This document shows positions 1,415-64,000 of a stretch of DNA of 64,000 bases, piece after piece. Each line of letters starts with the position of its first letter. Position 1 is the first letter of the stretch. The stretch lies in assembly GCF_003018255.1 (NCBI RefSeq), contig NZ_CP027440.1; one strand, written 5' to 3'. This stretch comes from Escherichia coli. GTDB taxonomy: Bacteria; Pseudomonadota; Gammaproteobacteria; Enterobacterales; Enterobacteriaceae. The position numbers were made by a program, and so were the translations under genes. The notes beneath the pieces were generated by a model that made no database searches, had not been told where the DNA came from, and was given only the letters and a program-made list of their open reading frames with translations.

Positions 1415-3073
<1,659 letters not shown>

Positions 3074-3099
3074 TTGCCCTGCACCTCGCAGAAATAAAC

Positions 3100-9469: not shown

Positions 9470-10602
<1,133 letters not shown>

Positions 10603-10610
<8 letters not shown>

Positions 10611-12411
10611 TCGCCTTCTCCTTCTTATTGGCTGCTTCCGCCTTATCGGCTGCATCCGCTTCGCCACCGTAAACACGTTTAGCTGGCGGCAGCGTAGTAA
10701 TCTTCACGTCGCTGTACTCCAGGCGAGTTGTGCCATCAGCATCGCGGAAGGCGAGGGTGTGTTTGAGGAAGTTGACGTCGTCACGCTCGGTGCAACCTTC
10801 GTCCAGACGCTGGTGCGCGCCGCGGGACTCTTTACGTGCCATTGCGGAGTGCGCCATACATTCAGCAACGTTCAGACCGTGGCCCAGCTCAATGGTGTAG
10901 AGCAGGTCGGTGTTGAACACGCTGGAAGTGTCGGTGATGCGCACGCGCTTGAAGCGTTCCTGCAGCTCTGCCAGCTTGTCGATGGTTTTCTGCATCAGTT
11001 CCGGCGTACGGTAGATACCGCAGCCTTCTTCCATGGCCATGCCCATTTCGTCGCGGATCTTAGCCCAGTTTTCGCCGCCATCCTGGTTAACCAGATCTTT
11101 CAGGCGCTGTTCAACGCCAGCAACCTGAGCATTGATTGCTGCATCGTTGCCATTACCGGCAGTAGATGCGCGTTCCATAGCTTGCTCACCGGCCAGACGA
11201 CCGAAGACCACCAGTTCCGCCAGCGAGTTGGAGCCCAGACGGTTCGCACCGTGCAGACCAACAGAGGAACATTCACCCACGGCGAACAGACCTTTAATGC
11301 GGGTTTCACAGTTCTGATCGGTTTCGATACCGCCCATGGTGTAGTGTGCGGTCGGACGTACCGGAATCGGTTCTTTAACCGGATCGACGCCAACGTACGC
11401 TTTCGCCAGTTCGCAGATGAACGGCAGACGTTCATGCAGTTTTTTCTCGCCGAGGTGACGCAGGTCGAGATAAACCACATCGCCACGTGGCGTGGAGATG
11501 GTGTTGCCTTTACGCCATTCGTGCCAGAAGGCCTGAGAAACTTTGTCGCGTGGACCCAGTTCCATATATTTGTTTTTCGGCTCGCCCAGCGGAGTTTCCG
11601 GGCCCATGCCGTAATCTTGCAGATAACGGTAGCCATTTTTGTTGACCAGAATACCACCTTCACCGCGGCAGCCTTCTGTCATCAGGATACCGGAACCGGG
11701 CAGACCGGTTGGGTGATACTGAACGAATTCCATGTCACGCAGCGGAACGCCGTGGCTTAGCGCCATACCCATACCGTCACCGGTAACGATGCCGCCGTTG
11801 GTGTTGTAACGATAAACGCGACCCGCACCGCCGGTAGCCATAACGACCGCGTTAGCACGGATCTGCACCAGCGTGCCTTCCATCATGTTCATTGCTACCA
11901 GGCCGCGAACATGACCATCATCAACCAGAATATCCAGCACGAAATGTTCGTCAAAACGCTGGATCTGCGGGAATTGCAGAGAGGTCTGGAACAGCGTGTG
12001 CAGCATATGGAAGCCGGTCTTATCGGCGGCGAACCAGGTGCGCTCGATTTTCATGCCGCCGAAGCGACGTACGTTGACGCTACCATCCGGGCGACGGCTC
12101 CATGGGCACCCCCACAGTTCCAGTTGGGTCATTTCGGTTGGGCAGTGGTGGACGAAATAATCCACGACATCCTGCTCACACAACCAGTCGCCACCCGCTA
12201 CTGTATCGTGAAAGTGATATTCGAAGCTGTCATGATCCTGCGCGACAGCGGCGGAGCCCCCTTCTGCAGCAACGGTATGGCTACGCATCGGGTATACTTT
12301 TGAGATTAGTGCGATTTTTGCATTTGGATTTGCCTGCGCGGCAGCAATTGCAGCACGTAATCCCGCGCCACCGGCGCCTACAATGGCAAGATCGGCTTGA
12401 AAGGTTTGCAC
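10603..12411 (-). CDS. frdA: Fumarate reductase flavoprotein subunit
   Basis: ORF track 602 aa; [21 protein letters not shown]... recognised as FrdA; overlaps frdB start by 8 nt. Confidence 0.97.
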
Positions 12412-12735
12412 GACATTCCTCCAGATTGTTTTTATCCCACAGCCCCGTACTTCAGGGTAAGTGCCTGAAAGTTACGGTCTGCGAACGCTATTCCACTGCT
12501 CCTTTATAGGTACAACAGTATAGTCTGATGGATAAGTCTGAAATTTGACGAGATCGATTTTTTTAGTGCGCAAGAGGGCTAAATTATCACTGAAGATGAT
12601 TAATTTAATTACTAAACCATCAGATCGTGCTTTTTTTAGTCACTGCCCACCCTTGTTTGATTCCTGCGTAAAATTTGTCTCGCCGTCGCGTTGCGAGTAG
12701 ACTTCGTGCCCTTGTCAAAAACTGGAGATTTAACT

Positions 12736-13713
12736 ATGAGCGAAACGGCATCCTGGCAGCCGAGCGCATCCATTCCTAACTTATTAAAACGCGCGGCGAT
12801 TATGGCGGAGATCCGTCGTTTCTTTGCCGATCGTGGAGTGCTGGAGGTGGAGACGCCTTGTATGAGCCAGGCGACGGTAACCGATATTCATTTGGTCCCG
12901 TTTGAGACACGTTTCGTAGGCCCCGGGCATTCGCAGGGGATGAATCTCTGGTTAATGACCAGCCCGGAATACCATATGAAACGCCTGCTGGTTGCTGGTT
13001 GTGGGCCGGTATTCCAGCTGTGCCGCAGCTTCCGTAATGAAGAGATGGGGCGTTATCACAACCCTGAGTTCACTATGCTTGAGTGGTATCGACCGCACTA
13101 TGATATGTACCGGTTGATGAACGAGGTGGACGATCTCTTGCAACAGGTGCTGGACTGTCCGGCAGCAGAAAGCCTTTCTTATCAACAAGCTTTCTTGCGT
13201 TATCTGGAAATTGACCCACTCTCTGCCGACAAAACGCAACTGCGGGAAGTGGCAGCGAAACTGGATTTGAGCAACGTTGCCGATACTGAAGAAGACCGCG
13301 ACACGCTTCTACAATTGCTGTTTACCTTTGGCGTAGAGCCAAATATTGGCAAAGAAAAACCGACCTTTGTGTACCACTTTCCAGCCAGCCAGGCATCACT
13401 GGCGCAAATCAGTACCGAAGATCATCGGGTCGCTGAACGCTTTGAGGTTTATTATAAAGGTATTGAGCTGGCGAATGGTTTCCATGAATTGACGGATGCC
13501 CGTGAGCAGCAACAACGCTTTGAACAAGATAACCGTAAGCGCGCGGCGCGCGGTTTGCCGCAGCACCCCATTGACCAGAATCTGATTGAAGCCTTGAAAG
13601 TCGGTATGCCTGACTGTTCCGGCGTGGCATTAGGCGTTGATCGTCTGGTGATGTTGGCGCTGGGCGCGGAGACACTGGCTGAAGTCATCGCCTTTAGCGT
13701 TGACCGGGCATAA
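12736..13713 (+). CDS. epmA: EF-P lysine-lysyltransferase EpmA (PoxA/GenX)
   Basis: ORF track frame; start at internal ATG 12736 ([17 protein letters not shown]), 325 aa; class II aaRS-like. Confidence 0.93.
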
Positions 13714-13931
13714 TTCTGAAAAATTACTGAATTAACCGCGAAGAATGGCGTGATAAGCGCCATTCTGTAGCATATGTTTTCATTTTTCCGCTAAAGGCCA
13801 CAATTTAAGACTGGATATTTGATATCATCCAGGTATCAATTCTGTATTGGTTTTTACGCTGCCCGCTCAATGTTGGGCAGTGCAGTTCAGTGGGCGCGTT
13901 TTATACACGCGCTGAAATGAAGGATGTTTTC

Positions 13932-15434
13932 ATGCCTCACACGATAAAAAAGATGAGTCTGATAGGACTCATATTGATGATCTTTACTTCCGTATTTGGA
14001 TTTGCCAATAGCCCATCGGCTTATTACTTAATGGGTTATAGTGCGATTCCCTTTTATATATTTTCTGCATTGTTATTCTTTATTCCATTCGCCTTAATGA
14101 TGGCTGAAATGGGAGCTGCTTATCGCAAAGAAGAAGGCGGTATCTATTCCTGGATGAATAATAGTGTCGGACCACGTTTTGCCTTCATTGGTACGTTTAT
14201 GTGGTTTTCCTCTTATATCATCTGGATGGTGAGTACCTCCGCGAAAGTTTGGGTACCGTTCTCAACATTCCTCTATGGTAGCGACATGACCCAGCACTGG
14301 CGTATTGCCGGACTGGAGCCTACGCAGGTGGTTGGTCTGCTGGCAGTGGCATGGATGATTCTGGTCACCGTCGTTGCTTCAAAAGGGATTAATAAAATTG
14401 CCCGCATTACTGCGGTGGGCGGTATTGCAGTAATGTGTCTGAATTTAGTATTGCTGTTAGTAAGCATTACTATTTTGTTATTAAATGGTGGGCATTTCGC
14501 GCAGGATATTAATTTCCTTGCATCACCGAACCCAGGTTATCAGTCCGGTCTGGCAATGCTATCGTTTGTGGTATTTGCTATTTTTGCCTATGGTGGAATT
14601 GAAGCGGTTGGTGGTCTGGTCGATAAAACGGAAAATCCAGAAAAGAACTTTGCCAAAGGTATTGTTTTTGCCGCTATTGTTATTTCAATCGGTTATTCGC
14701 TGGCAATATTTTTATGGGGCGTCAGCACAAACTGGCAGCAGGTATTAAGTAATGGTTCCGTTAACCTCGGCAATATTACCTATGTGCTGATGAAGAGCCT
14801 CGGGGTGACGCTGGGTAACGCACTGCATTTGTCACCTGAAGCGTCATTGTCGCTGGGCGTATGGTTTGCGCGTATTACCGGACTTTCGATGTTCCTCGCT
14901 TATACCGGTGCGTTCTTTACGCTTTGCTATTCACCGCTGAAAGCCATCATCCAGGGGACGCCGAAAGCGTTGTGGCCGGAACCGATGACGCGCCTGAATG
15001 CGATGGGGATGCCGTCTATCGCCATGTGGATGCAGTGCGGGTTGGTTACTGTCTTCATCCTGCTGGTTTCGTTTGGTGGCGGTACCGCATCGGCGTTCTT
15101 TAACAAGCTGACGCTGATGGCGAACGTGTCTATGACGCTTCCTTACCTGTTCCTCGCGCTGGCTTTCCCATTCTTTAAAGCACGTCAGGATCTCGACAGA
15201 CCGTTTGTGATTTTCAAAACGCATATGTCGGCAATGATTGCAACAGTGGTTGTCGTACTGGTGGTGACATTTGCGAACGTCTTCACCATCATTCAACCTG
15301 TGGTTGAAGCTGGAGACTGGGACAGCACATTGTGGATGATTGGCGGCCCTGTCTTCTTCTCGCTGTTAGCGATGGCGATTTACCAGAACTATTGCAGTCG
15401 CATGGCGAACAAACCTGAGTTAGCTCTCGACTGA
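13932..15434 (+). CDS. yjeM: APC-family amino-acid transporter YjeM
   Basis: ORF track frame; start at ATG 13932 (MPHTIKKMSLIGLILM), 500 aa, polytopic membrane protein. Confidence 0.88.
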   Translation: MPHTIKKMSLIGLILMIFTSVFGFANSPSAYYLMGYSAIPFYIFSALLFFIPFALMMAEMGAAYRKEEGGIYSWMNNSVGPRFAFIGTFMWFSSYIIWMVSTSAKVWVPFSTFLYGSDMTQHWRIAGLEPTQVVGLLAVAWMILVTVVASKGINKIARITAVGGIAVMCLNLVLLLVSITILLLNGGHFAQDINFLASPNPGYQSGLAMLSFVVFAIFAYGGIEAVGGLVDKTENPEKNFAKGIVFAAIVISIGYSLAIFLWGVSTNWQQVLSNGSVNLGNITYVLMKSLGVTLGNALHLSPEASLSLGVWFARITGLSMFLAYTGAFFTLCYSPLKAIIQGTPKALWPEPMTRLNAMGMPSIAMWMQCGLVTVFILLVSFGGGTASAFFNKLTLMANVSMTLPYLFLALAFPFFKARQDLDRPFVIFKTHMSAMIATVVVVLVVTFANVFTIIQPVVEAGDWDSTLWMIGGPVFFSLLAMAIYQNYCSRMANKPELALD

Positions 15435-49754: not shown

Positions 49755-51506
<1,752 letters not shown>

Positions 51507-51521
51507 TAAGGAGTTTTGATT

Positions 51522-51827
51522 ATGACCGTACGTATTCTGGCTGTGTGTGGCAACGGACAAGGCAGTTCCATGATCATGAAAATGAAAGTGGACCAGTTTT
51601 TAACCCAGTCGAACATTGACCACACGGTAAACAGCTGCGCGGTTGGCGAATACAAAAGCGAGTTGAGCGGCGCGGATATCATCATCGCTTCTACCCATAT
51701 TGCGGGCGAAATCACTGTGACCGGCAACAAATATGTGGTTGGCGTGCGCAATATGCTCTCTCCTGCCGACTTTGGCCCGAAATTGCTGGAAGTGATCAAA
51801 GAGCATTTTCCGCAGGACGTGAAGTAA
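51522..51827 (+). CDS. ulaB: Ascorbate PTS EIIB
   Basis: ORF track frame; start at ATG 51522 ([16 protein letters not shown]), 101 aa. Confidence 0.95.
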
Positions 51828-51836
51828 GGACGCGCC

Positions 51837-52301
51837 ATGAAATTACGTGATTCGCTGGCGGAGAATAAATCCATCCGCCTGCAGGCTGAAGCTGAGACAT
51901 GGCAGGACGCAGTAAAAATCGGCGTTGACCTGCTGGTGGCGGCGGATGTTGTCGAGCCGCGTTACTACCAGGCGATTCTGGATGCGGTTGAACAGCACGG
52001 TCCGTACTTTGTGCTCGCACCCGGCCTGGCAATGCCGCACGGTCGCCCGGAAGAGGGCGTTAAGAAAACCGGTTTTGCGCTGGTGACGCTGAAAAAGCCG
52101 CTGGAGTTCAACCACGAAGATAACGATCCGGTGGATATCCTCATCACCATGGCGGCGGTCGATGCCAACACTCACCAGGAAGTGGGCATCATGCAGATCG
52201 TCAATCTGTTTGAAGATGAAGAGAATTTCGACCGTTTACGTGCCTGCCGTACCGAGCAGGAAGTACTGGATCTCATTGACCGCACCAACGCGGCAGCTTA
52301 A
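51837..52301 (+). CDS. ulaC: Ascorbate PTS EIIA
   Basis: ORF track 154 aa. Confidence 0.95.
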
Positions 52302-52314
52302 GAAGGAATTGAAA

Positions 52315-52965
52315 ATGTCATTACCGATGTTGCAGGTCGCGCTGGACAACCAGACTATGGATAGCGCCTATGAAACCACTCGCCTGATTGCCGAAGAAGT
52401 CGACATTATCGAAGTGGGTACCATTCTGTGCGTGGGCGAAGGCGTGCGTGCGGTTCGCGATCTGAAAGCGCTTTACCCGCACAAAATCGTACTGGCAGAC
52501 GCCAAAATTGCCGATGCGGGCAAAATCCTTTCTCGTATGTGCTTCGAAGCTAACGCTGACTGGGTGACCGTGATTTGCTGTGCGGATATCAACACAGCTA
52601 AAGGTGCGCTGGACGTGGCAAAAGAGTTTAACGGCGACGTGCAGATCGAACTGACCGGTTACTGGACCTGGGAACAGGCGCAACAGTGGCGCGACGCAGG
52701 CATTGGGCAGGTGGTTTATCACCGCAGCCGTGACGCACAGGCCGCAGGTGTGGCGTGGGGCGAAGCGGACATTACCGCGATCAAACGTCTTTCCGATATG
52801 GGCTTCAAAGTCACCGTCACCGGTGGTCTGGCGCTGGAAGATCTGCCGTTGTTTAAAGGCATTCCGATTCATGTGTTTATCGCTGGTCGCAGCATTCGTG
52901 ATGCCGCTTCTCCGGTGGAGGCCGCACGTCAGTTCAAACGTTCCATCGCTGAACTGTGGGGCTAA
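52315..52965 (+). CDS. ulaD: 3-keto-L-gulonate-6-phosphate decarboxylase UlaD
   Basis: ORF track frame; start at ATG 52315 ([19 protein letters not shown]), 216 aa. Confidence 0.95.
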
Positions 52966-52974
52966 GGAGCGGAT

Positions 52975-53829
52975 ATGTTGTCCAAACAAATCCCGCTTGG
53001 CATCTATGAAAAAGCGCTCCCCGCCGGGGAGTGCTGGCTGGAACGGCTGCAACTGGCAAAAACGTTAGGCTTCGATTTTGTCGAGATTTCGGTAGATGAA
53101 ACGGACGATCGCCTGTCGCGCCTCGACTGGAGCCGCGAGCAGCGTCTGGCGCTGGTGAACGCGATTGTTGAAACCGGCGTGCGCGTGCCGTCCATGTGCC
53201 TTTCTGCTCATCGTCGTTTCCCGCTGGGCAGCGAAGATGACGCAGTGCGGGCGCAGGGGCTGGAGATTATGCGCAAAGCTATCCAGTTCGCCCAGGATGT
53301 CGGTATTCGCGTGATCCAACTGGCGGGCTACGACGTTTACTATCAGGAAGCCAATAACGAAACGCGTCGTCGTTTCCGTGACGGCCTGAAAGAGAGCGTT
53401 GAGATGGCAAGCCGCGCGCAGGTGACGCTGGCGATGGAGATCATGGATTACCCGTTGATGAACTCCATCAGCAAGGCGCTGGGTTACGCGCACTATCTTA
53501 ACAACCCGTGGTTCCAGCTCTACCCGGATATCGGCAACTTGTCGGCGTGGGACAACGACGTGCAGATGGAGTTGCAGGCCGGGATCGGGCATATCGTCGC
53601 GGTGCATGTGAAAGACACCAAACCAGGCGTCTTCAAAAACGTCCCGTTTGGCGAAGGTGTAGTGGATTTCGAACGTTGCTTCGAAACGCTCAAACAGAGT
53701 GGTTATTGCGGGCCGTACCTGATTGAGATGTGGAGCGAAACGGCGGAAGACCCGGCGGCAGAAGTGGCGAAAGCGCGTGATTGGGTGAAAGCGCGCATGG
53801 CCAAAGCCGGCATGGTGGAGGCGGCATAA
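52975..53829 (+). CDS. ulaE: L-ribulose-5-phosphate 3-epimerase UlaE
   Basis: ORF track 284 aa. Confidence 0.95.
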
Positions 53830-54515
53830 TGCAAAAGCTAAAACAGCAGGTATTTGAAGCCAATATGGATCTGCCGCGCTACGGGCTGGTGACCTTTACC
53901 TGGGGCAACGTCAGCGCCATTGACCGCGAACGCGGGCTGGTGGTGATCAAGCCCAGCGGCGTTGCCTACGAAACCATGAAAGCAGACGATATGGTGGTGG
54001 TTGATATGAGCGGCAAGGTGGTGGAAGGGGAGTATCGTCCGTCTTCCGACACCGCGACGCATCTTGAACTCTACCGCCGTTATCCGTCGCTTGGCGGCAT
54101 TGTCCATACCCATTCCACGCATGCCACCGCATGGGCGCAGGCGGGGCTGGCTATCCCGGCATTAGGCACCACGCACGCTGACTACTTCTTTGGCGATATC
54201 CCCTGTACGCGCGGGTTAAGCGAAGAAGAAGTGCAGGGGGAATACGAGCTAAACACTGGCAAAGTGATTATCGAAACGCTGGGTGACGCCGAGCCGCTGC
54301 ATACGCCGGGAATTGTGGTGTATCAGCACGGGCCATTCGCCTGGGGGAAAGATGCTCACGATGCGGTGCATAACGCGGTGGTGATGGAAGAAGTGGCGAA
54401 AATGGCGTGGATTGCCCGCGGCATTAACCCGCAACTGAATCACATCGACAGCTATCTCATGAATAAACACTTCATGCGTAAGCACGGTCCCAACGCCTAT
54501 TACGGGCAGAAGTAA
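53829..54515 (+). CDS. ulaF: L-ribulose-5-phosphate 4-epimerase UlaF
   Basis: ORF track frame; start at ATG 53829 overlapping the ulaE stop (TAATG), 228 aa. Confidence 0.95.
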
Positions 54516-57087: not shown

Positions 57088-57579
57088 ATGGGTAAAAAAA
57101 CAGCACCGTTACTCCCTTATACGAATCAGATGCTTAGTGAATTTGGTGAGCGGCTGAAACTTGCTCGTTTACGACGCAGGCTTACCGCAAAGCAAGTTGC
57201 TGAACGTGCTGGGATGTCGCCAATAACATTGCGCTCTCTGGAGTCAGGAAGTGCAGGGGTCACGATAGGGGCATATTTGTCTGTGATGCAGGTTTTGGGC
57301 CTGGAAACGGATTTAAATAAGCTTGCAGCTGAAGACGACTTAGGGCGTCAGCTCCAGGATTCCCGTTTGATTAAAAAAAGAGGGCTTTCTCGTGCATCAA
57401 GTAAGAATGAAGAAGGTTCTCAGACAGCCTCATTGCAGATGAGGCACGAGAAAGAAGGTCATCTCACCACGGATTTAACAGCACTGGCAGAAGGCTCGAC
57501 GCCATCTATTACAGGAGAAACATCAACCTCTCTTGCAGCACTATTAAAACCGATAAAAAAACCGTTAAAAGGAAATTAA
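57088..57579 (+). CDS. XRE-family helix-turn-helix protein with extended Ser/Thr-rich C-terminal tail; putative HipB-like antitoxin/repressor
   Basis: ORF track 163 aa; N-terminal region ([32 protein letters not shown]) has the XRE/Cro-type HTH pattern; stop lies 2 nt before the kinase start. Confidence 0.7.
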
Positions 57580-57581
57580 TT

Positions 57582-58850
57582 ATGGCATTAATCGGAGTGT
57601 ATGCGGATTGGGAAGGCCTGGATGGTCCGGAGCGGATTGGTTATTTACACAGTCGCCGCACTCGGACGCGTGAGATATTTGAGTTTGAGTACGATAAAAA
57701 GGCGCTTGCAGATCCTTCACTTAATTTCATTCAGTTAGATCCTGAAATAATGTTGTATGAGGGAGCACACTACCCAATTCCTCCAAAGGATAAATTTGGT
57801 GCATTTAGTGATTCCTGCCCGGATCGTTGGGGGCGTATGCTAATGAAGCGTCGTTTTGAGAGGGATATTCGAGACGGGTTATGTGATAAAGACTCCCACC
57901 TTTATGAGTCTGATTATCTACTAGGTGTTCATGATCTTTATCGGGTTGGGGCCCTTCGATACAAACGTGAAGACGCTGGAGAGTTTCTTGATAATCGCAT
58001 TGATGTTGCAGCCCCACCATTTACCGAAATAGCGAGTCTGGAAAGGGCTAGCCGGGCAATTGAAGAAGATCCTGATAATAAAGAGCTAATGGGGCAAAAA
58101 TGGTTAAGAATGCTAATCGCTCCGGGGGGATCATTAGGGGGGGCACGTCCGAAAGCCAGTGTTGTTGATGAAGCTGGGCATCTCTACATCGCTAAATTTC
58201 CCAGTGTAAAAGATGAGTATGATGTTGGTGGATGGGAAATGGCCGTTAATGCACTTGCTGTTGGCTGTGGACTGAATGTTGCACCTGCTCAGGCGCATAA
58301 ATTTGCCAGCAATTACCATTGTTTTATGGTTCGTCGTTTTGACCGCACTAATGCGGGAAGGCGTCTGCATTTTGCTTCGGCTATGACACTAACCAGGCAT
58401 CAGGATGGTGAAGATGCCTCTACAGGTGTGAGTTATCTGGAATTAGCAGATGTTCTTATCAGGCATGGCGCGCAGACTAATACTGATCTTAAGGAACTCT
58501 GGTCCAGGATTGTTTTTAATATTCTTGTTTCTAATACCGATGATCATTTACGCAATCATGGATTTATCTTGATACCAGGAAAAGGTTGGCGGCTTTCTGA
58601 GGCATATGATTTGAATCCTGTGGTCAGGTCTGATGGTTTAAAACTCAATATTACGGAAAATGACAATGCACTTGATTTGGAATTAGCTAGAGAAGTTGCA
58701 GAGTATTTTCGACTTAGTTTGACGGAAGCTGATGACATTATTGCTAATTTTAGAGGGATTGTCAGTCAGTGGCGAATCATTGCCGAGCGTCTGAGATTAC
58801 CTGGTCGTGAGCAAGAGTTAATGGCAGAGGCATTCAGAGCGTCAATTTAG
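57582..58850 (+). CDS. HipA-family serine/threonine kinase (putative toxin)
   Basis: ORF track 422 aa; HipA-like motifs GGARPK (res ~186-191), NTDDHLRNHG (res ~318-327), AYD (res ~341-343) and N-terminal SDSCPDRWGR resembling the HipA N-subdomain; RBS aaaagga. Confidence 0.75.
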   Translation: MALIGVYADWEGLDGPERIGYLHSRRTRTREIFEFEYDKKALADPSLNFIQLDPEIMLYEGAHYPIPPKDKFGAFSDSCPDRWGRMLMKRRFERDIRDGLCDKDSHLYESDYLLGVHDLYRVGALRYKREDAGEFLDNRIDVAAPPFTEIASLERASRAIEEDPDNKELMGQKWLRMLIAPGGSLGGARPKASVVDEAGHLYIAKFPSVKDEYDVGGWEMAVNALAVGCGLNVAPAQAHKFASNYHCFMVRRFDRTNAGRRLHFASAMTLTRHQDGEDASTGVSYLELADVLIRHGAQTNTDLKELWSRIVFNILVSNTDDHLRNHGFILIPGKGWRLSEAYDLNPVVRSDGLKLNITENDNALDLELAREVAEYFRLSLTEADDIIANFRGIVSQWRIIAERLRLPGREQELMAEAFRASI

Positions 58851-58948
58851 AATAGTTATTTCGATATATTCGCTAAATCATAAATTTGCGAAGCAATGCC
58901 AGTAGATACTGAACGTTTTGGAAGAGACGTTTAATTTATGAGAAAAAT

Positions 58949-58981
58949 AGAAACGCTACAAAGCTAAATTATAGCGTTTCT
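58949..58981. terminator. Perfect 10-bp stem hairpin between convergent kinase gene and MFS gene
   Basis: agaaacgcta / tagcgtttct with 13-nt loop; T-rich run follows on the minus strand, so probably the MFS operon terminator. Confidence 0.55.
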
Positions 58982-58992
58982 ATGTAAAATAA

Positions 58993-60270
58993 TTAGCTTG
59001 TCGCTAACTGTACTTGTGGTTCTTCGTCTTTAACTTTGATAAGCATCCACAGCGCAATGGCGCCAATAATGTCAAAGAAAGCCAGGGCAATAAAGAACGG
59101 CGCGAAGCCAATAATGTGAACGAATGCCCCGATAAACAGGTTGAAAATCAACTGACCGCTCCATGCACAGGCTCCTGCCATACCCACAGCGGTAGCTACT
59201 TCGTCTTTTTTGAATAGGTCACCGCCCAGAGTTGCTGCAACAGTAGAAAGACATTGATGCGAGAATGCGCCAATGCTAATCAGTAATACGGCGATGTAGG
59301 GATTTTCGACAATACTCACCAGACCAATCGTCATCATAATGACGGCTGCAATAGTGAAGGTAATTCTTCGTGAGTTAATTAAACTCACGCCGCGATCGTG
59401 GAAGAACTTCGCGACAAAACCACTGGCTAAACAGCCGAGATCGCCCAGCAGGAAAGGTAGCCAGACGAACATGGCAATTTCTTTCAGGCTAAAATGCAGC
59501 GTTTCGACGAAGAAAATCGGTACCCAGAAGTTAATGGTTCCCCATGCCGGGTCAGCGAGAAAACGCGCGATGCCAATCCCCCAGAAATTACGTTGGCTGA
59601 GGATATGCTTGATTGACGTTTTTTCTTTCTTATCTGTTTTAAGATGCTGTTCTTGCCCAGACTCAATATAGTGGCGCTCTTCATCAGAAAGGCGTTTAGC
59701 ATCTTTTGGATCTTTATAACAAAAGAACCAAAATAAAGCCGCGAGTAAAGCAAGGCTACCTGAGACAATAAACGCAAATTGCCAGCTATGAAACATAATG
59801 CACCAGGCAATCAACGGTGGAGCAAGCATCGCGCCGAGTGAGGTGCCCATATTGAAAACACCTGTCGCCACGCCACGCTCTTTTGCCGGGAACCATGTTG
59901 ATGCGGTTTTTACACCCGCAGGAATTGCCGATGCTTCGCTGAAACCCATCAGGGCGCGCATAAATGCCAGACCTGACCATGTTCCTGTCAAGGCATGCCC
60001 CATTGTCGCCAGGCCCCAGATTGCGGCACATATCGCAAAACTTAACTTCAGACCCACGGTATCAATAAAGAAGCCCATTATCGGTTGCCCCAATGTATAG
60101 GCCAACTGGAATGCACTGACAATCCATGAATATTGTTCTTTGGTTATTCCGGTTGTCTCCATAATCGTTGGAGCCGCAATACCTAACGCCGTTCTGTCCA
60201 GATAATTGATTACAGTGATAAAGCATACGAGGGCAATCATATGCCATCGATAATTCTTTATTTTATTCAT
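58993..60270 (-). CDS. MFS transporter, probably anion:cation symporter (ACS) type
   Basis: ORF track 425 aa; about 12 predicted hydrophobic helices; N-terminal NYLDRT motif resembling ExuT/DgoT-type carriers. Confidence 0.75.
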   Translation of the reverse strand: MNKIKNYRWHMIALVCFITVINYLDRTALGIAAPTIMETTGITKEQYSWIVSAFQLAYTLGQPIMGFFIDTVGLKLSFAICAAIWGLATMGHALTGTWSGLAFMRALMGFSEASAIPAGVKTASTWFPAKERGVATGVFNMGTSLGAMLAPPLIAWCIMFHSWQFAFIVSGSLALLAALFWFFCYKDPKDAKRLSDEERHYIESGQEQHLKTDKKEKTSIKHILSQRNFWGIGIARFLADPAWGTINFWVPIFFVETLHFSLKEIAMFVWLPFLLGDLGCLASGFVAKFFHDRGVSLINSRRITFTIAAVIMMTIGLVSIVENPYIAVLLISIGAFSHQCLSTVAATLGGDLFKKDEVATAVGMAGACAWSGQLIFNLFIGAFVHIIGFAPFFIALAFFDIIGAIALWMLIKVKDEEPQVQLATS

Positions 60271-60362
60271 TTTTAAACCTTTTAATTATATTAATAAACC
60301 CTGGTTGTTGGTATTTCCATGTAATAGGCAATAAAAATCAGGTACAGAGGAAATATTGAAAA

Positions 60363-62435
60363 TTATTGTGTGTAAATGTCTCCCTTTAAAAAATCTGGCC
60401 AGTTTTTTTCAAAGTAAATACCGTTAATACACGGTTGCATACGTAAAGACTTTACTTCGGTAATAAAAGAACCTTGCGAATATTGAATTGTTAATTTGTG
60501 ATTTTTGTCTTCAGCGAGTTCAGAGCGAAAACGCCATTCTTCTTTTGCGCCGCGACGAGTTTGTGGTAGGCATTTGCCTTGTGGATCAATAACCATACGC
60601 GCCCCACGGCTACCACCACCAGCATCAATATAATGCGTTAATTGTGTTAATACCGCGGCAGAAGTCAGCGCCATATGCCGCCACATAAACAGCTCGGCAA
60701 CTTCACCCACATGTTTGATTGCCAATCCATGCCGTTGGACAAATTCGTTCAATAGCAGGGCATCACGAGTGGCACGTCGGACTTTATCGGCATGGCAAAT
60801 AAATCCCGCATAGTCAGACATTCGTGCCTGAATTTTTTCTCTCACAACCGACAACGGCATCCCGGTCCCGTTATCGTGCGCCTGAGTAATGATCTCTCTT
60901 ATAGAAGCCAGTGCCGGAGCTACCAGCTGTGCTATATCTCCATCAATATTACGTTTTTGCGTGCAACCAATAAAACGTGCCAGACGAACAGCAAAAACCT
61001 GCCCGGCATTCAATGCCGCACCACCAGGGCGAGTGACGCCGTGTGTGCCAGCAACTTCCCCCACGGCGAAACAGCCGGGCAGGGAGGTTTGTCCCCAGAT
61101 ATCCACTTCAATGCCGCCATTCATATGCTGATTATTCATGGCAAACTGCAAAGGCTGTGTGGTGAGATCGTAACCGTGCATCTTATACAGCGAGATAGAC
61201 AGCGGATTCATTCGTTGCAGCCGTTCGATGGGCGATGGTGCCAGAGCGTCGTTATTTTCCAGATACGCGCGAACGTCGTCGTCCAGTCGATCTAATGAGA
61301 AGGGCAGGTCACCCGGCACCGCTTCAGGATTGCGATTGAAATCCATAAATACCTGACGCCCTGATTGCTGCTCTTGCGCTACAGCCATATCTAACAAGCT
61401 GGAGCCAAACTCCATTACCCGAGTGGCGTGGAACGGCCACTGATAGCCTTTACGAAAAATGTTTGAAGCCAGCTCCTGGGTGGTGCGATAGTAATCCGCG
61501 AGGAAGTTATACTCGTTGCCCCCGGCATCCACGGAATAGATATGTGGGATCACCTGCACATAGGTGCCGGACAAATTCCACGGAAACGTGCTGCGCGGTG
61601 TGCCTATACCAAACTGGCTTTCAGTCAAATTGGTTAGCGTCAGACCTTCTTCCAGCGCCAGCCCCAGCGAGCCGAAACATTTGTGTGGGTACACACTGTC
61701 GCGATAAAGCTCGCCAGGCCCTCCTGTTGCCAGTACCACATTGGGCGCAATCACAATTGCCAGCCCCCATGGGTTATGGACGCGATGACCGGTCGCGAGG
61801 ATAGCCCCCGCCACGCGGTCTTCGCCGTTTTCGTCACGCTGATGCAGCAGTTTAATCACTGTTGCACTGGTCAACATTGGGATAGCAAGACGCTGTACTT
61901 CTTCCAGCAGCACTTTCACCATTAACCTTGAGGTACGTGGCCCACACGAGGTTGCACGCCCGGCTTCGTCATGGTCGGTTTGATAACGAAGAATCGCACC
62001 ATAGCGATCTTCCGGTAATTCCAGACCAAGATATTGCAACCCGCCAAGAGTGTGCAGAGAACCTACCGCTTCGACATAAGCAGTGTCGTGATCCATCGCC
62101 CCACCACTCGCCAGTGCCTCTGCCAGTTTGGTGAAGTTGTCGCCGTTGCCCGCGGTAGCGGCGGTAAACAGCGTCTGTTTATCGGAACCGGAGCAGGCCG
62201 ATGTTCCCATGTATAACCCGGCGGTGGCGATTAACACATTTTGCTGGCGGCGTTTAAGTTCCACAGCTGCACGCAGCCCGGCTGCACCACTGCCGACTAC
62301 CAGGGCATCTGTTTGCCAAAGTGGGTAATCAACACCGTCTACCGTGACAACCCATGCGGGTTCTGCCTGTGCAAAACCCTTTGGGAAAGTAACGTGCGTC
62401 AGCGCATCAAGGATGGTGTCATCAAGCTGACTCAT
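60363..62435 (-). CDS. FAD-dependent oxidoreductase, fumarate reductase/succinate dehydrogenase flavoprotein-like
   Basis: ORF track 690 aa; dinucleotide-binding VVGSGAAGLRAA and FrdA-like segment CFAVGEVAGTHGVTRPGGAALNAGQVF; ATG overlaps the upstream stop (ATGA). Confidence 0.7.
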   Translation of the reverse strand: MSQLDDTILDALTHVTFPKGFAQAEPAWVVTVDGVDYPLWQTDALVVGSGAAGLRAAVELKRRQQNVLIATAGLYMGTSACSGSDKQTLFTAATAGNGDNFTKLAEALASGGAMDHDTAYVEAVGSLHTLGGLQYLGLELPEDRYGAILRYQTDHDEAGRATSCGPRTSRLMVKVLLEEVQRLAIPMLTSATVIKLLHQRDENGEDRVAGAILATGHRVHNPWGLAIVIAPNVVLATGGPGELYRDSVYPHKCFGSLGLALEEGLTLTNLTESQFGIGTPRSTFPWNLSGTYVQVIPHIYSVDAGGNEYNFLADYYRTTQELASNIFRKGYQWPFHATRVMEFGSSLLDMAVAQEQQSGRQVFMDFNRNPEAVPGDLPFSLDRLDDDVRAYLENNDALAPSPIERLQRMNPLSISLYKMHGYDLTTQPLQFAMNNQHMNGGIEVDIWGQTSLPGCFAVGEVAGTHGVTRPGGAALNAGQVFAVRLARFIGCTQKRNIDGDIAQLVAPALASIREIITQAHDNGTGMPLSVVREKIQARMSDYAGFICHADKVRRATRDALLLNEFVQRHGLAIKHVGEVAELFMWRHMALTSAAVLTQLTHYIDAGGGSRGARMVIDPQGKCLPQTRRGAKEEWRFRSELAEDKNHKLTIQYSQGSFITEVKSLRMQPCINGIYFEKNWPDFLKGDIYTQ

Positions 62436-63973
62436 GCATCCTCCATCGGCGTAAACAGGCTACTTTCCATCAGGCGTGGGTGCTTGATAATTGGACGGAA
62501 AGCCATATACGGCAGAATGTCGCGCTCAATCTCCACACCCGGCGCGATTTCAATTAATTCAACGCCTTCTGCCGTTAACTGGAATACTGCGCGTTCAGTG
62601 ATATACAGCACTTCCTGACCACTTTGCTGTGCGTAGGCGGCGCTAAAAGTGATTTTTTCCACTTGGGTAACCAGTTTAGGGATTTGACCTGACTGGGCGA
62701 TATGCAGGCCATCAGGCGTTACATCAATCTTGCTGCCTTTGGCGTCAAACGTACCGCAGAACACCACTTTACGGGCGTTTTGCGCAATTTCGAGGAAGCC
62801 GCCGGGGCCAATGAGATTGCCATTGAGATGGGATACGTTGACGTTACCGTACCGATCCATCTCTCCCATGCCGAGGAAGGTGATATCGATACCGCCGCCA
62901 CTGTAGAATTCGAATTGATCGAGTGATGGAATAATGGCGTCGGCGTTACGGGCGCAGCCGAACAGAGCATCATCCAGCATCATGCCGTTATGTACGCCTT
63001 GCTCGACGCTCATCCATAAACTTTGATAAGGCACGCCTTCGCGCAGCGCAACCCCAGGAATACCGCCCGGAATACCAAAGCCAAAGTTGGTTGAAGCGCC
63101 TGCCACCAGTTCCCGTGCTGCCCGACGGGCAATCAGGCGACGCACCGGATGACTAACCAGTTCAATAGCGTCGTTAGAACTTAGACGGCGATGTTGACCG
63201 CTGATCGTCAGGTCGTAACCGCCAAGATAGGTTTGCGGTTGTTCGCGGTGTTCAACGATACCATCGACCAGAATCCCCGGTAGCTTGACCTTGCGAGGTT
63301 CAATGGCGCCAGCTTCCAGTACATCGCGCACCTGTACAAACACTTTGCCGCCACTGTTGTGTGCTGCCAGCGCCATCGAATAGCTATCCATATCAATCGC
63401 TTCTTCTTCGAGGCTAACGTTGCCACGCGGATCGGCATAGGTGCCGCGCAAAATCGCGTAGTCCACTTTGAAAGGGCGATAGCGGAGTTTGGTTTCACCG
63501 TCGATTTCAATCAGTTCTACCAGGTCGTCGGTCGTGCATTCATTCGACTTACCGCCACCATTGCGTGGATCAACAAACGATCCCAGCCCAACGTGGGTAA
63601 AAAGCCCCGGACGTCCGGCACCGATCTCCCGCAGCAGTGCCTGAATTACGCCACCAGGGAAACAGTAGGCTTCAATAGCATTGCTTTTCACCAGTTCCTG
63701 CATCTTGGGCGACCAGGTAAAATGTCCGGCAATAATGCGTTTGAGCATTTCGGCGTGAGCAAAACGGTTAGTGCCTTTGCTGTCGCGATCGCCAATACCC
63801 AGCGAGTGGATTAATGTCAGATCGCGCGGGTGTCCGGTTTGCAGGAAACGCGCTTCAATGGCGGCCATAATATGGTCAGCTTCCACCATACCGCCGCCGT
63901 TACCGCTAATGGCAATGGTTGCGCCGTCCTGAATTTGCGCCGCCAGTGTCTCGGCGGTTGATAACTTACGCAT
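62432..63973 (-). CDS. Fused two-domain acyl-CoA:acetate/3-ketoacid CoA-transferase (YdiF-like)
   Basis: ORF track 513 aa; strong resemblance to E. coli YdiF along its whole length by recall; RBS aggaaa; promoter lies beyond the window end. Confidence 0.75.
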   Translation of the reverse strand: MRKLSTAETLAAQIQDGATIAISGNGGGMVEADHIMAAIEARFLQTGHPRDLTLIHSLGIGDRDSKGTNRFAHAEMLKRIIAGHFTWSPKMQELVKSNAIEAYCFPGGVIQALLREIGAGRPGLFTHVGLGSFVDPRNGGGKSNECTTDDLVELIEIDGETKLRYRPFKVDYAILRGTYADPRGNVSLEEEAIDMDSYSMALAAHNSGGKVFVQVRDVLEAGAIEPRKVKLPGILVDGIVEHREQPQTYLGGYDLTISGQHRRLSSNDAIELVSHPVRRLIARRAARELVAGASTNFGFGIPGGIPGVALREGVPYQSLWMSVEQGVHNGMMLDDALFGCARNADAIIPSLDQFEFYSGGGIDITFLGMGEMDRYGNVNVSHLNGNLIGPGGFLEIAQNARKVVFCGTFDAKGSKIDVTPDGLHIAQSGQIPKLVTQVEKITFSAAYAQQSGQEVLYITERAVFQLTAEGVELIEIAPGVEIERDILPYMAFRPIIKHPRLMESSLFTPMEDA

Positions 63974-64000
63974 ACAATTTCCTTATTGATTGTGGAAGCT

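Follow-up and report, generated by a model that had tools for sequence, protein, structure and literature searches.

The 64,000-nucleotide stretch of Escherichia coli contig NZ_CP027440.1 analysed here (the window) carries near its end three genes, for a fused coenzyme A (CoA)-transferase, a flavin adenine dinucleotide (FAD) flavoprotein and a transporter, and the question raised by this locus is which compound they act on. The original prediction, made from the sequence of the window, saw in them a three-gene accessory operon of an uncharacterised organic-acid pathway, the substrate of which was not inferable. The present analysis also supports an uncharacterised accessory operon for an imported organic anion, but the operon comprises six genes and a TetR regulator, and the three genes of the window are its downstream half. 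In locus L001 of E. coli, which is collinear with the window, the genes are arranged in the order short-chain dehydrogenase/reductase (SDR), triosephosphate isomerase (TIM) barrel protein, enoyl-CoA hydratase (crotonase), CoA-transferase, flavoprotein and transporter. With moderate confidence, the operon is interpreted as a functional, TetR-repressed unit for the catabolism of an imported sugar acid of the hexuronate type: either D-glucuronate or a closely related compound, such as a different uronate stereoisomer or an acid derived from a uronate.

Transporters in the last position of the operon

The transporter of the window had been called a major facilitator superfamily (MFS) carrier of the anion:cation symporter (ACS) type, and TIGR00893 of this family was indeed the best-scoring NCBIfam model (314 bits, below the cut-off of 395). 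The protein is 47% identical to K-12 ExuT over its full length, and the MFS carrier in the same slot of the Klebsiella operon is 48% identical to ExuT. The window carrier shares 50–52% identity with the Klebsiella and Salmonella carriers of this slot; the enzymes are 78–94% identical there. Carriers with 80–86% identity were found in Providencia, Gilliamella, Edwardsiella, Pantoea and Yersinia, and the Gilliamella and Providencia carriers adjoining uxuA, uxuB and uxaC are 83–86% identical to that of the window. In Gilliamella apis and Providencia rettgeri the neighbours of the carrier gene are uxuA, uxuB (Mannitol_dh), uxaC and a GntR/FCD regulator, that is, the canonical glucuronate pathway.

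In an alternative E. coli allele, the MFS gene is replaced by a tripartite ATP-independent periplasmic (TRAP) system, DctQ-DctM-DctP (positions 12083–14990 of locus L010), and this cassette is present in 1445–1481 E. coli genomes. The binding protein DctP scored best, with 206–243 bits, against the structures 4OVR, 4X8R, 4N8Y, 4N15, 4N91 and 4MIJ. Among the solved binding proteins, 4X8R is in complex with glucuronate and 4N8Y with galacturonate (PMC11668362), and 4N91 (Apre_1383) and 4MHF (Bpro_3107) are binders of glucuronate or galacturonate (PMC7660916). Residues R146, R166 and N206 of DctP align with the conserved Arg/Arg/Asn of the glucuronate and galacturonate binders. Also the closest relatives of DctP beyond Escherichia and Klebsiella, found in Providencia and Vibrio (59–61% identity), adjoin GH2, GH31, uxaC, uxuB, uxuA, PfkB and GntR genes.

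One slot is thus occupied by three transporter types, two ExuT-like MFS types and the TRAP system, and since all of them belong to hexuronate or glucuronate lineages, the substrate class of the operon is probably a hexuronate-type sugar acid. To this extent a substrate can be proposed from the ancestry of the MFS and TRAP proteins, contrary to the original prediction.

The breakpoint of the transporter cassette, as located by blastn, lies inside the flavoprotein gene at about position 60595, and the last ~77 residues of the flavoprotein co-vary with the cassette. These C-terminal 77 amino acids are only 47–56% identical between alleles and genera, as against 80–96% for residues 1–612. The MFS gene with the spacer (58993–60499) has a GC content of 0.36–0.48, compared to 0.52–0.55 in the enzyme genes. 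This low GC content, together with the 80–86% identity to carriers of the low-GC Orbaceae and Morganellaceae, suggests that the MFS cassette was acquired horizontally. The three interchangeable transporters in a single slot illustrate cleanly how transporter cassettes are exchanged in nature.

Gene neighbourhoods of the flavoprotein clade

The neighbourhoods of flavoprotein relatives were scanned using one genome per species; 80 loci were kept, and the open reading frames (ORFs) within 6 kb of the flavoprotein gene were clustered, with counts given of 81 loci. SDR proteins were the most frequent neighbours (34 loci), followed by Gfo/Idh/MocA proteins (25), glucose-methanol-choline (GMC) oxidoreductases (20), LacI and sugar ATP-binding cassette (ABC) ATPases (17 each), KdgK-like PfkB proteins (16), AP_endonuc_2 TIM barrels and old yellow enzyme (OYE)-type proteins (15 each), Eda-like aldolases (14), TetR (10) and TRAP components (8). 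Since SDR, Gfo/Idh/MocA, TIM barrel, KdgK-like and Eda-like proteins recur beside it, the flavoprotein is embedded in sugar-acid and keto-deoxy-acid catabolism.

The order of the genes varies among the hosts. It is TetR-SDR-Gfo-TIM-MFS-FAD in Pseudescherichia, Phytobacter and Mangrovibacter, TetR-SDR-FAD-TIM-TRAP in a Succinatimonas-like metagenome-assembled genome (MAG), and OYE/GltD fusion-SDR-Eda-BNR_4-FAD-KdgK-MtnA in Phycisphaerae. On a Rhizobium plasmid the order is CoA-transferase-crotonase-aldehyde dehydrogenase-sugar ABC-GMC-GMC-Gfo-FAD-KdgK-like-class I aldolase, where the Gfo/Idh/MocA protein matched levoglucosan dehydrogenase with a score of 306 bits, short of the cut-off.

The CoA-transferase and the crotonase are minority but recurrent partners of the flavoprotein, present in Escherichia, Klebsiella and Salmonella, on the Rhizobium plasmid and in the loci L017 and L080. 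Their similarity among these loci is at the family level only (34–41% identity), the Rhizobium copies being 40% and 34% identical to those of E. coli. As the two are adjacent in a minority of loci only, they were rejected as obligate partners of the flavoprotein. The original prediction had combined import of an anionic substrate, activation by CoA and a flavin-dependent oxidation or reduction. The organic anion, the CoA chemistry and the flavoprotein all stand, but a simple sequence of activation followed by redox is not the best fit because the CoA partners are only occasional.

A different substrate is suggested by Brenneria, in which the order TetR-SDR-TIM-FAD is followed by a PcaK-like MFS carrier for aromatic acids. 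The compound would then be a hydroaromatic carbocyclic acid (quinate, shikimate or a dehydro form, isosteric with a pyranuronate), with the SDR serving as a dehydrogenase and the TIM barrel as a dehydratase; reduction or desaturation of the ring beside the carboxylate would fall to the flavoprotein, and the CoA steps would proceed as in cyclohexanecarboxylate formation. Such a pathway is improbable in the light of the ExuT-like MFS carriers of E. coli, Klebsiella and Salmonella and the hexuronate-like TRAP binding protein. In addition, AsbF is far from the nearest structural neighbour of the TIM barrel (rank 26), and KdgK-like, Eda-like and sugar-ABC contexts dominate elsewhere.

Flavoprotein

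In the flavoprotein the only Pfam domain found was FAD_binding_2 (2e-25), and no OYE-like, FMN_bind or NADH:flavin domain was detected in the E. coli protein with Pfam. The NCBIfam matches to TfrA, NadB and SdhA models were weak and below threshold (80–125 bits compared to cut-offs of 450–720), and FrdA, SdhA and NadB chains were also matched. The AlphaFold model (predicted local distance difference test score 91.9) had FrdA and SdhA structures as the top Foldseek matches in the PDB (1KF6, 5VPN and others), with template modelling (TM) scores of 0.65–0.79 and an identity of ~18%. The clade includes 412 clusters (50% identity) at E<1e-30, the members of which are named only "FAD-binding protein".

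Individual residues were compared by sequence alignment only, using the genuine FrdA of the window (10603–12411) and 34 family members. The window itself contains genuine genes of fumarate reductase, frdA and frdB, at ~9876–12411 on the minus strand. The GxGxxG motif of the FAD site (GSGAAG at residue 48) and the C-terminal SRGA motif are both invariant. Also invariant are H437 and R469, the predicted equivalents of the carboxylate-binding pair H355/R390 of FrdA. In the alignment, the dicarboxylate site of FrdA (H232, T244, R287, H355, R390) is not retained as a whole, the equivalents of H355 and R390 being invariant. The segment aligned with the position of covalent FAD attachment (FrdA His44), GLYMGTSACSGSDKQT, has no His, and FrdA H232 aligns with the invariant G276. 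At the position of the proton donor R287 the window protein has H298, the TRAP allele, Klebsiella and Salmonella have Tyr, and Arg is present only in the part of the clade with 35–41% identity.

The description of the flavoprotein as FrdA-like is thus valid at the level of the fold, but the hallmarks of fumarate reductases are missing. No iron-sulphur subunit (FrdB/SdhB) or membrane anchor was found in the operon in L001, REL606, Klebsiella or Salmonella. A true fumarate reductase or succinate dehydrogenase was therefore rejected, given the low scores and the lack of the covalent-FAD His, of an iron-sulphur partner and of a conserved proton-donor Arg. The L-aspartate oxidase NadB was rejected on the basis of scores (99–105 bits against cut-offs of 453–639).

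The flavoprotein could nevertheless work as a reductase within a carnitine-like electron sink, which is the main rival of the hexuronate reading and corresponds to the second option of the original prediction, an anaerobic electron-sink pathway. The transferase would convert an imported beta-hydroxy acid to its CoA thioester, from which the crotonase would remove water; the alpha,beta-unsaturated acid or thioester so formed would be reduced by the flavoprotein, and the CoA would be passed to the next molecule, serving anaerobic redox balance and not carbon supply. The logic of transporter, CoA-transferase, crotonase and flavoprotein would parallel that of the cai operon. OYE-type genes adjoin the flavoprotein gene in 15 of the 81 loci, and in the 41%-identical relative P0152 an N-terminal OYE-like domain is fused to the FAD domain; OYE-like and FAD_binding_2 domains together form the architecture of cytoplasmic NADH:2-enoate reductases (bioRxiv 10.1101/2023.03.04.531086). 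The hosts also include strict anaerobes, such as the Succinatimonas-like MAG and Subdoligranulum. However, the E. coli protein has neither an OYE or FMN_bind domain nor an adjacent electron donor, and the proton-donor Arg of FrdA is not kept in the enterobacterial clade. The SDR and the TIM barrel, which are the commonest partners of the flavoprotein, would be left without a role, and many of the hosts, from Rhizobium and the Rhodobacteraceae, are aerobes in which genes for kinases and aldolases lie downstream. A reductive sink is therefore considered unlikely.

Other enzymes of the operon

The CoA-transferase aligned end to end with YdiF (PDB 2AHU; E=3e-114, query residues 8–508 with chain residues 19–518). 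It matched both the A-subunit and the B-subunit models, i.e. both CoA_trans halves are present in one polypeptide. In the alignment, Glu333 of YdiF (LTVE333TG), the residue that forms the glutamyl-CoA thioester, corresponds to Glu324 of the query (MSVE324QG). The identification of a fused YdiF-like transferase is well founded on this alignment and on the presence of Glu324.

The crotonase has the oxyanion-hole motif AGGD at residue 64 and both catalytic Glu residues, one in GGGIE (111–115) and the other in the NPE of FSNPEVILG. The SDR has the classical TGxxxGxG, NNAG and YxxxK motifs. In the TIM barrel, E146, D185, H210 and E252 are invariant and resemble the metal and catalytic tetrad of ketose 3-epimerases; on account of this likeness, epimerisation or isomerisation next to a carbonyl is the most likely activity. 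Two other assignments of the TIM barrel were rejected: an AsbF-type dehydroshikimate dehydratase, because of rank 26 of AsbF among the structural neighbours, and a C-glycoside or levoglucosan-type lyase, which was not among the nearest ones.

Some of the best matches of these enzymes point to short-chain acids. The best NCBIfam match of the transferase was FadX of Staphylococcus (381 bits), the best PDB match of the crotonase was 3-hydroxypropionyl-CoA dehydratase, and the SDR was named 3-ketoacyl-acyl carrier protein reductase by PRK12745. In Rhizobium, moreover, an aldehyde dehydrogenase gene lies beside those of the CoA-transferase and the crotonase. The operon might on these grounds be a module resembling beta-oxidation or one for C3 acids, in which the enzymes would act on small acyl-CoAs (the substrates being 3-hydroxypropionate, acrylate, lactate or acetoacetate). 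This is very improbable, as the supporting scores are below family cut-offs or come from legacy names, and the hexuronate-type transporters, the TIM barrel and the sugar-acid neighbourhoods would be unexplained. Furthermore, the flavoprotein keeps the His/Arg pair that would bind a free carboxylate.

Organization and regulation of the operon

The ORF list agrees with the original prediction of three co-directional genes (Table 1), and also the predicted overlap and gap between them were found: the TGA of the transferase gene and the ATG of the flavoprotein gene overlap as ATGA at 62432–62435 (GAT GCA TGA / ATG AGT CAG), and 92 bp precede the MFS gene.

Table 1. Features of the operon in the window.
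Feature	Position	Strand	Basis and remarks
MFS transporter gene, 425 aa, ExuT-type (ACS family)	58993-60270	minus	ORF list; last operon gene, swappable cassette
Flavoprotein gene, 690 aa, cytoplasmic, FAD	60363-62435	minus	ORF list; uncharacterised clade of the FrdA/SdhA/NadB superfamily
Fused family-I (YdiF/Pct-like) CoA-transferase gene, 513 aa	62432-63973	minus	ORF list; stop overlaps flavoprotein start
End of upstream enoyl-CoA hydratase gene (..SFHNQ*)	63983-64000	minus	Translation and annotation of collinear locus L001
Flavoprotein-MFS spacer, 92 bp, AT-rich	60271-60362	minus	GC 0.36; no terminator-like structure
Terminator-like hairpin, 15-bp stem, then T-run	58947-58983	minus	Terminator scan; directly after MFS stop codon
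Variable 3' segment of flavoprotein gene, last ~77 codons	60363-60595	minus	Similarity to TRAP-type allele stops at ~60595

The ATG of the CoA-transferase gene is 9 bp downstream of the hydratase stop, and the last nucleotides of the window include the final five codons and the stop of the hydratase gene. The operon therefore runs on past the window end, beyond which the promoter and the regulator had been placed also in the original prediction. In L001 the gaps between the genes are 9, 9 and 9 bp, followed by the 4-bp overlap and the 92-bp spacer, and the TIM barrel is annotated as AP_endonuc_2, "sugar phosphate isomerase/epimerase", being xylose-isomerase-like. Extending the sequence, as had been suggested, led to the regulator in related genomes (L001, REL606, Klebsiella and Salmonella): a divergent TetR gene lies beyond the SDR gene and abuts ytfB in L001, and the layout is identical in REL606.

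The divergent promoter region between the SDR and TetR genes is 213 bp long. At L001 19583–19621 it includes a near-perfect 22-bp palindrome, ATCAACCAtctagtTGGTTGAT, conserved among three E. coli loci; a CRP-like site, TGCGATAATGATCACA, which has a single mismatch, comes directly after the palindrome. By inference, the palindrome is a candidate TetR operator and the CRP-like site may provide catabolite control.

No terminator was found in the scan of the gaps between the three genes of the window. The sole terminator-like hairpin downstream is the one following the MFS gene, read from 58983 to 58947, and it is likely to mark the end of the operon. The 92-bp spacer has a minimum free energy of -8.4 kcal/mol, weaker than that of shuffled sequence (z = +1.78), and a separate promoter or terminator for the MFS gene was rejected since none above chance was present in it. 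As the spacer is unstructured, co-transcription is the simplest reading, and the three genes are predicted to share a transcript.

In some E. coli records (proteins P0004, 1078 aa, and P0030, 1043 aa), a single ORF has both the CoA_trans and the FAD_binding_2 domains. This suggests a fusion of the transferase and the flavoprotein at the ATGA overlap, either via a frameshift or through annotation.

Between rplI and the operon terminator the window has a plus-strand pair (57088–58850) of a helix-turn-helix (HTH) protein of 163 aa and a HipA-family kinase of 422 aa. The pair is present in 1046 of the 5426 complete E. coli genomes; REL606 is without it, and rplI directly adjoins the operon there. 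The kinase gave a weak YjjJ-type NCBIfam match (44 bits) and had no match among the defence-system models of PADLOC. About 5 kb away from the operon is the ula (ascorbate) operon (~50109–54515, plus strand), which encodes another AP_endonuc_2 TIM barrel, UlaE, and enzymes for 3-keto-L-gulonate-6-phosphate. A metabolic link from a glucuronate-derived keto-gulonate to the ula enzymes is conceivable.

Distribution, selection and loss

The region was matched by 3159 of the 5426 complete E. coli genomes (about 58%), in 1656 of these over at least 80% of its length. The remaining matching genomes align only from query position 1696 onwards, corresponding to about 60595 in the window; these are the strains with the TRAP system in place of the MFS gene. 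The K-12-type segment with yjfZ was found in 2513–2539 E. coli genomes. The genomes with the operon (3159) and those of the yjfZ type (2539) together exceed 5426 by ~270, so that some genomes must carry both.

Also in Klebsiella oxytoca and Salmonella, the arrangement of TetR and SDR-TIM-hydratase-CoA-transferase-FAD-MFS is located between ytfB and rplI. The ratio of nonsynonymous to synonymous substitutions (dN/dS) between the E. coli genes and their Klebsiella or Salmonella orthologues was 0.02–0.07 for TetR and all five enzymes; the genes are therefore under purifying selection, functional and not chance ORFs.

In MG1655 the place of the operon is taken by yjfZ, and the blastn match to L001 starts again midway through the TetR gene. 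The K-12 pseudogene ytfA (2588–3096 in locus L094; NC_000913.3 4427587–4428095) corresponds to the 3' two-thirds of the TetR gene of the operon and is therefore a TetR remnant. Just upstream of ytfA is a 102-bp remnant of the SDR gene with 80% identity. A K-12 equivalent at the position of the operon was rejected, because only yjfZ, the ytfA pseudogene and these scars are present; the original prediction would have been overturned by an already characterised pathway at this position in K-12. The shared synteny in Klebsiella and Salmonella and the deletion scars of K-12 indicate that the operon is ancestral at the site and has been lost repeatedly, and that it is no recent island. The term accessory thus applies in that the operon is absent from the K-12 lineage, but it is accessory through loss and not through gain.

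Repeated loss could also mean that the operon is a decaying or silent remnant that no longer functions in E. coli. The K-12 lineage and roughly 40% of the complete genomes have lost it, and some strains have IS1 insertions (as within the region in strain FDAARGOS_1297) or ORFs that are fused or partial. Against this, the ORFs are intact in more than 3000 genomes and in two allelic forms, the low dN/dS extends across genera and the catalytic residues are conserved, which makes a remnant extremely improbable. An intact operon under selection is present also in workhorse and probiotic strains (B/BL21, REL606 and Nissle), and its absence from K-12 is a plausible reason why it went unstudied.

Proposed function

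In the hexuronate-type reading, the acid would be imported by the ExuT-like MFS carrier or, in the other allele, by the TRAP system. The flavoprotein would bind its carboxylate with His437 and Arg469 and carry out redox chemistry at the carbon or carbons beside the carboxylate, either as an oxidation of C-alpha-OH or C-alpha-C-beta or in the reverse direction as an enoate reduction. The SDR would make or remove a carbonyl, and the metal-dependent TIM barrel would epimerise or isomerise beside the carbonyl made by the SDR. In Escherichia, Klebsiella and Salmonella, the CoA-transferase and the crotonase would contribute a further step, in which an intermediate that is a beta-hydroxy or beta-keto acid is hydrated or dehydrated in a thioester-dependent manner. 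In other phyla the product of the flavoprotein clade may pass to KdgK-like kinases and to aldolases, either Eda-like or of class I; in E. coli, KdgK and Eda are encoded at other loci. The compound itself, the sequence of the steps and the direction in which the flavin reacts are inferences.

More tentatively, the operon is possibly a second, hitherto undescribed hexuronate route, for glucuronate or for a stereoisomer or derivative such as iduronate stemming from the host or the diet, in E. coli, the Klebsiella oxytoca group and some Salmonella. The key enzyme would then found a new FrdA/NadB-like clade of wide distribution acting on sugar acids, with recruitment in enterobacteria of the CoA-thioester chemistry that is otherwise almost unknown in sugar-acid catabolism.

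Several points weigh against a hexuronate-type substrate. Profile searches of the operon proteins found no enzyme homologous to those of known uronate pathways, and the existence of ExuT/UxaC/UxuAB in E. coli for the use of glucuronate raises the question of why another route should be needed. No uronate scheme devised accounts for the CoA-transferase and the hydratase, and both are absent from most flavoprotein loci. The PcaK-like carrier following the Brenneria flavoprotein would fit a carbocyclic acid, the E. coli operon includes no gene for an electron partner, and the variation across subclades of the residue aligned with the proton-donor Arg may mean that the chemistry differs between them. 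Finally, the ancestry of the transporters would point to the class of the substrate and not to the identity of the compound.

Glucuronate and related uronates, set free from pectin, glycosaminoglycans and the glucuronides of the host, are major gut nutrients for Enterobacteriaceae. Assigning a function to the operon would give the first role to a clade of more than 400 clusters in Proteobacteria, Planctomycetota, Verrucomicrobiota and Firmicutes, show whether uronate metabolism uses CoA thioesters, and explain the ytfA pseudogene of K-12. The operon represents a specific gap in the knowledge of E. coli and gut metabolism, one that can be tested, and not a categorically new system.

Comparison with known systems

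A full-text search, with most subscription journals and the fitness databases outside its scope, found no literature on the operon, the origin of ytfA or the flavoprotein clade. The Ashwell hexuronate system (exuT-uxaCA/uxuAB) resembles the operon in its transporter lineage, and hence in the probable substrate class. In the profile searches, none of the five enzymes was homologous to UxaC, UxuB/UxaB or UxuA/UxaA, and the regulation of the Ashwell pathway is by the GntR-type ExuR/UxuR instead of TetR.

The cai (carnitine) operon of E. coli combines a transporter, a CoA-transferase, a crotonase-type hydratase/dehydratase and a flavoprotein for a hydroxy acid. However, CaiB is a family-III transferase and CaiA of the acyl-CoA dehydrogenase type, whereas the transferase described here belongs to family I and the flavoprotein is of the FAD_binding_2/FrdA-like type. 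The cai operon also lacks an SDR and a TIM barrel, both of which are present in the operon of the window.

The soluble NADH:2-enoate reductases (the NADH:fumarate reductase of Klebsiella and the acrylate and cinnamate reductases of Vibrio) share with the flavoprotein a catalytic FAD_binding_2 domain with non-covalent FAD. They have an N-terminal OYE-like domain as in the relative P0152, but their three-domain architecture is not that of the E. coli protein. With FrdA, SdhA and NadB the window flavoprotein has in common the fold, GxGxxG, the His/Arg pair and the SRGA motif; it differs from FrdA in having no covalent-FAD His, no FrdB-type partner and a Gly in the place of H232.

In Klebsiella michiganensis, 2-deoxyribonate is degraded via an acyl-CoA pathway (Price et al. 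2019, PMC6365646), which is a precedent for the use of CoA thioesters for a sugar acid in an enterobacterium. The cluster in question encodes a CoA synthetase, a beta-hydroxyacyl-CoA dehydrogenase, a thiolase and a glycerate kinase, and has no FrdA-like flavoprotein, crotonase or TIM barrel (PMC6365646). The gene sets being different, the operon was rejected as an instance of this pathway; in its mode of working it bears some likeness to both cai and the deoxyribonate route but belongs to neither. Of the structurally characterised proteins, SMc04130 of Sinorhizobium meliloti (PDB 3QC0/3JU2) is without an assigned function, and YdiF (PDB 2AHU), a short-chain acyl-CoA:acetate transferase, is encoded at another locus of K-12. 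In comparison to all these systems, the operon is probably one for sugar-acid catabolism in which members of known superfamilies are combined in a way not described before, with a flavoprotein clade of no assigned function.

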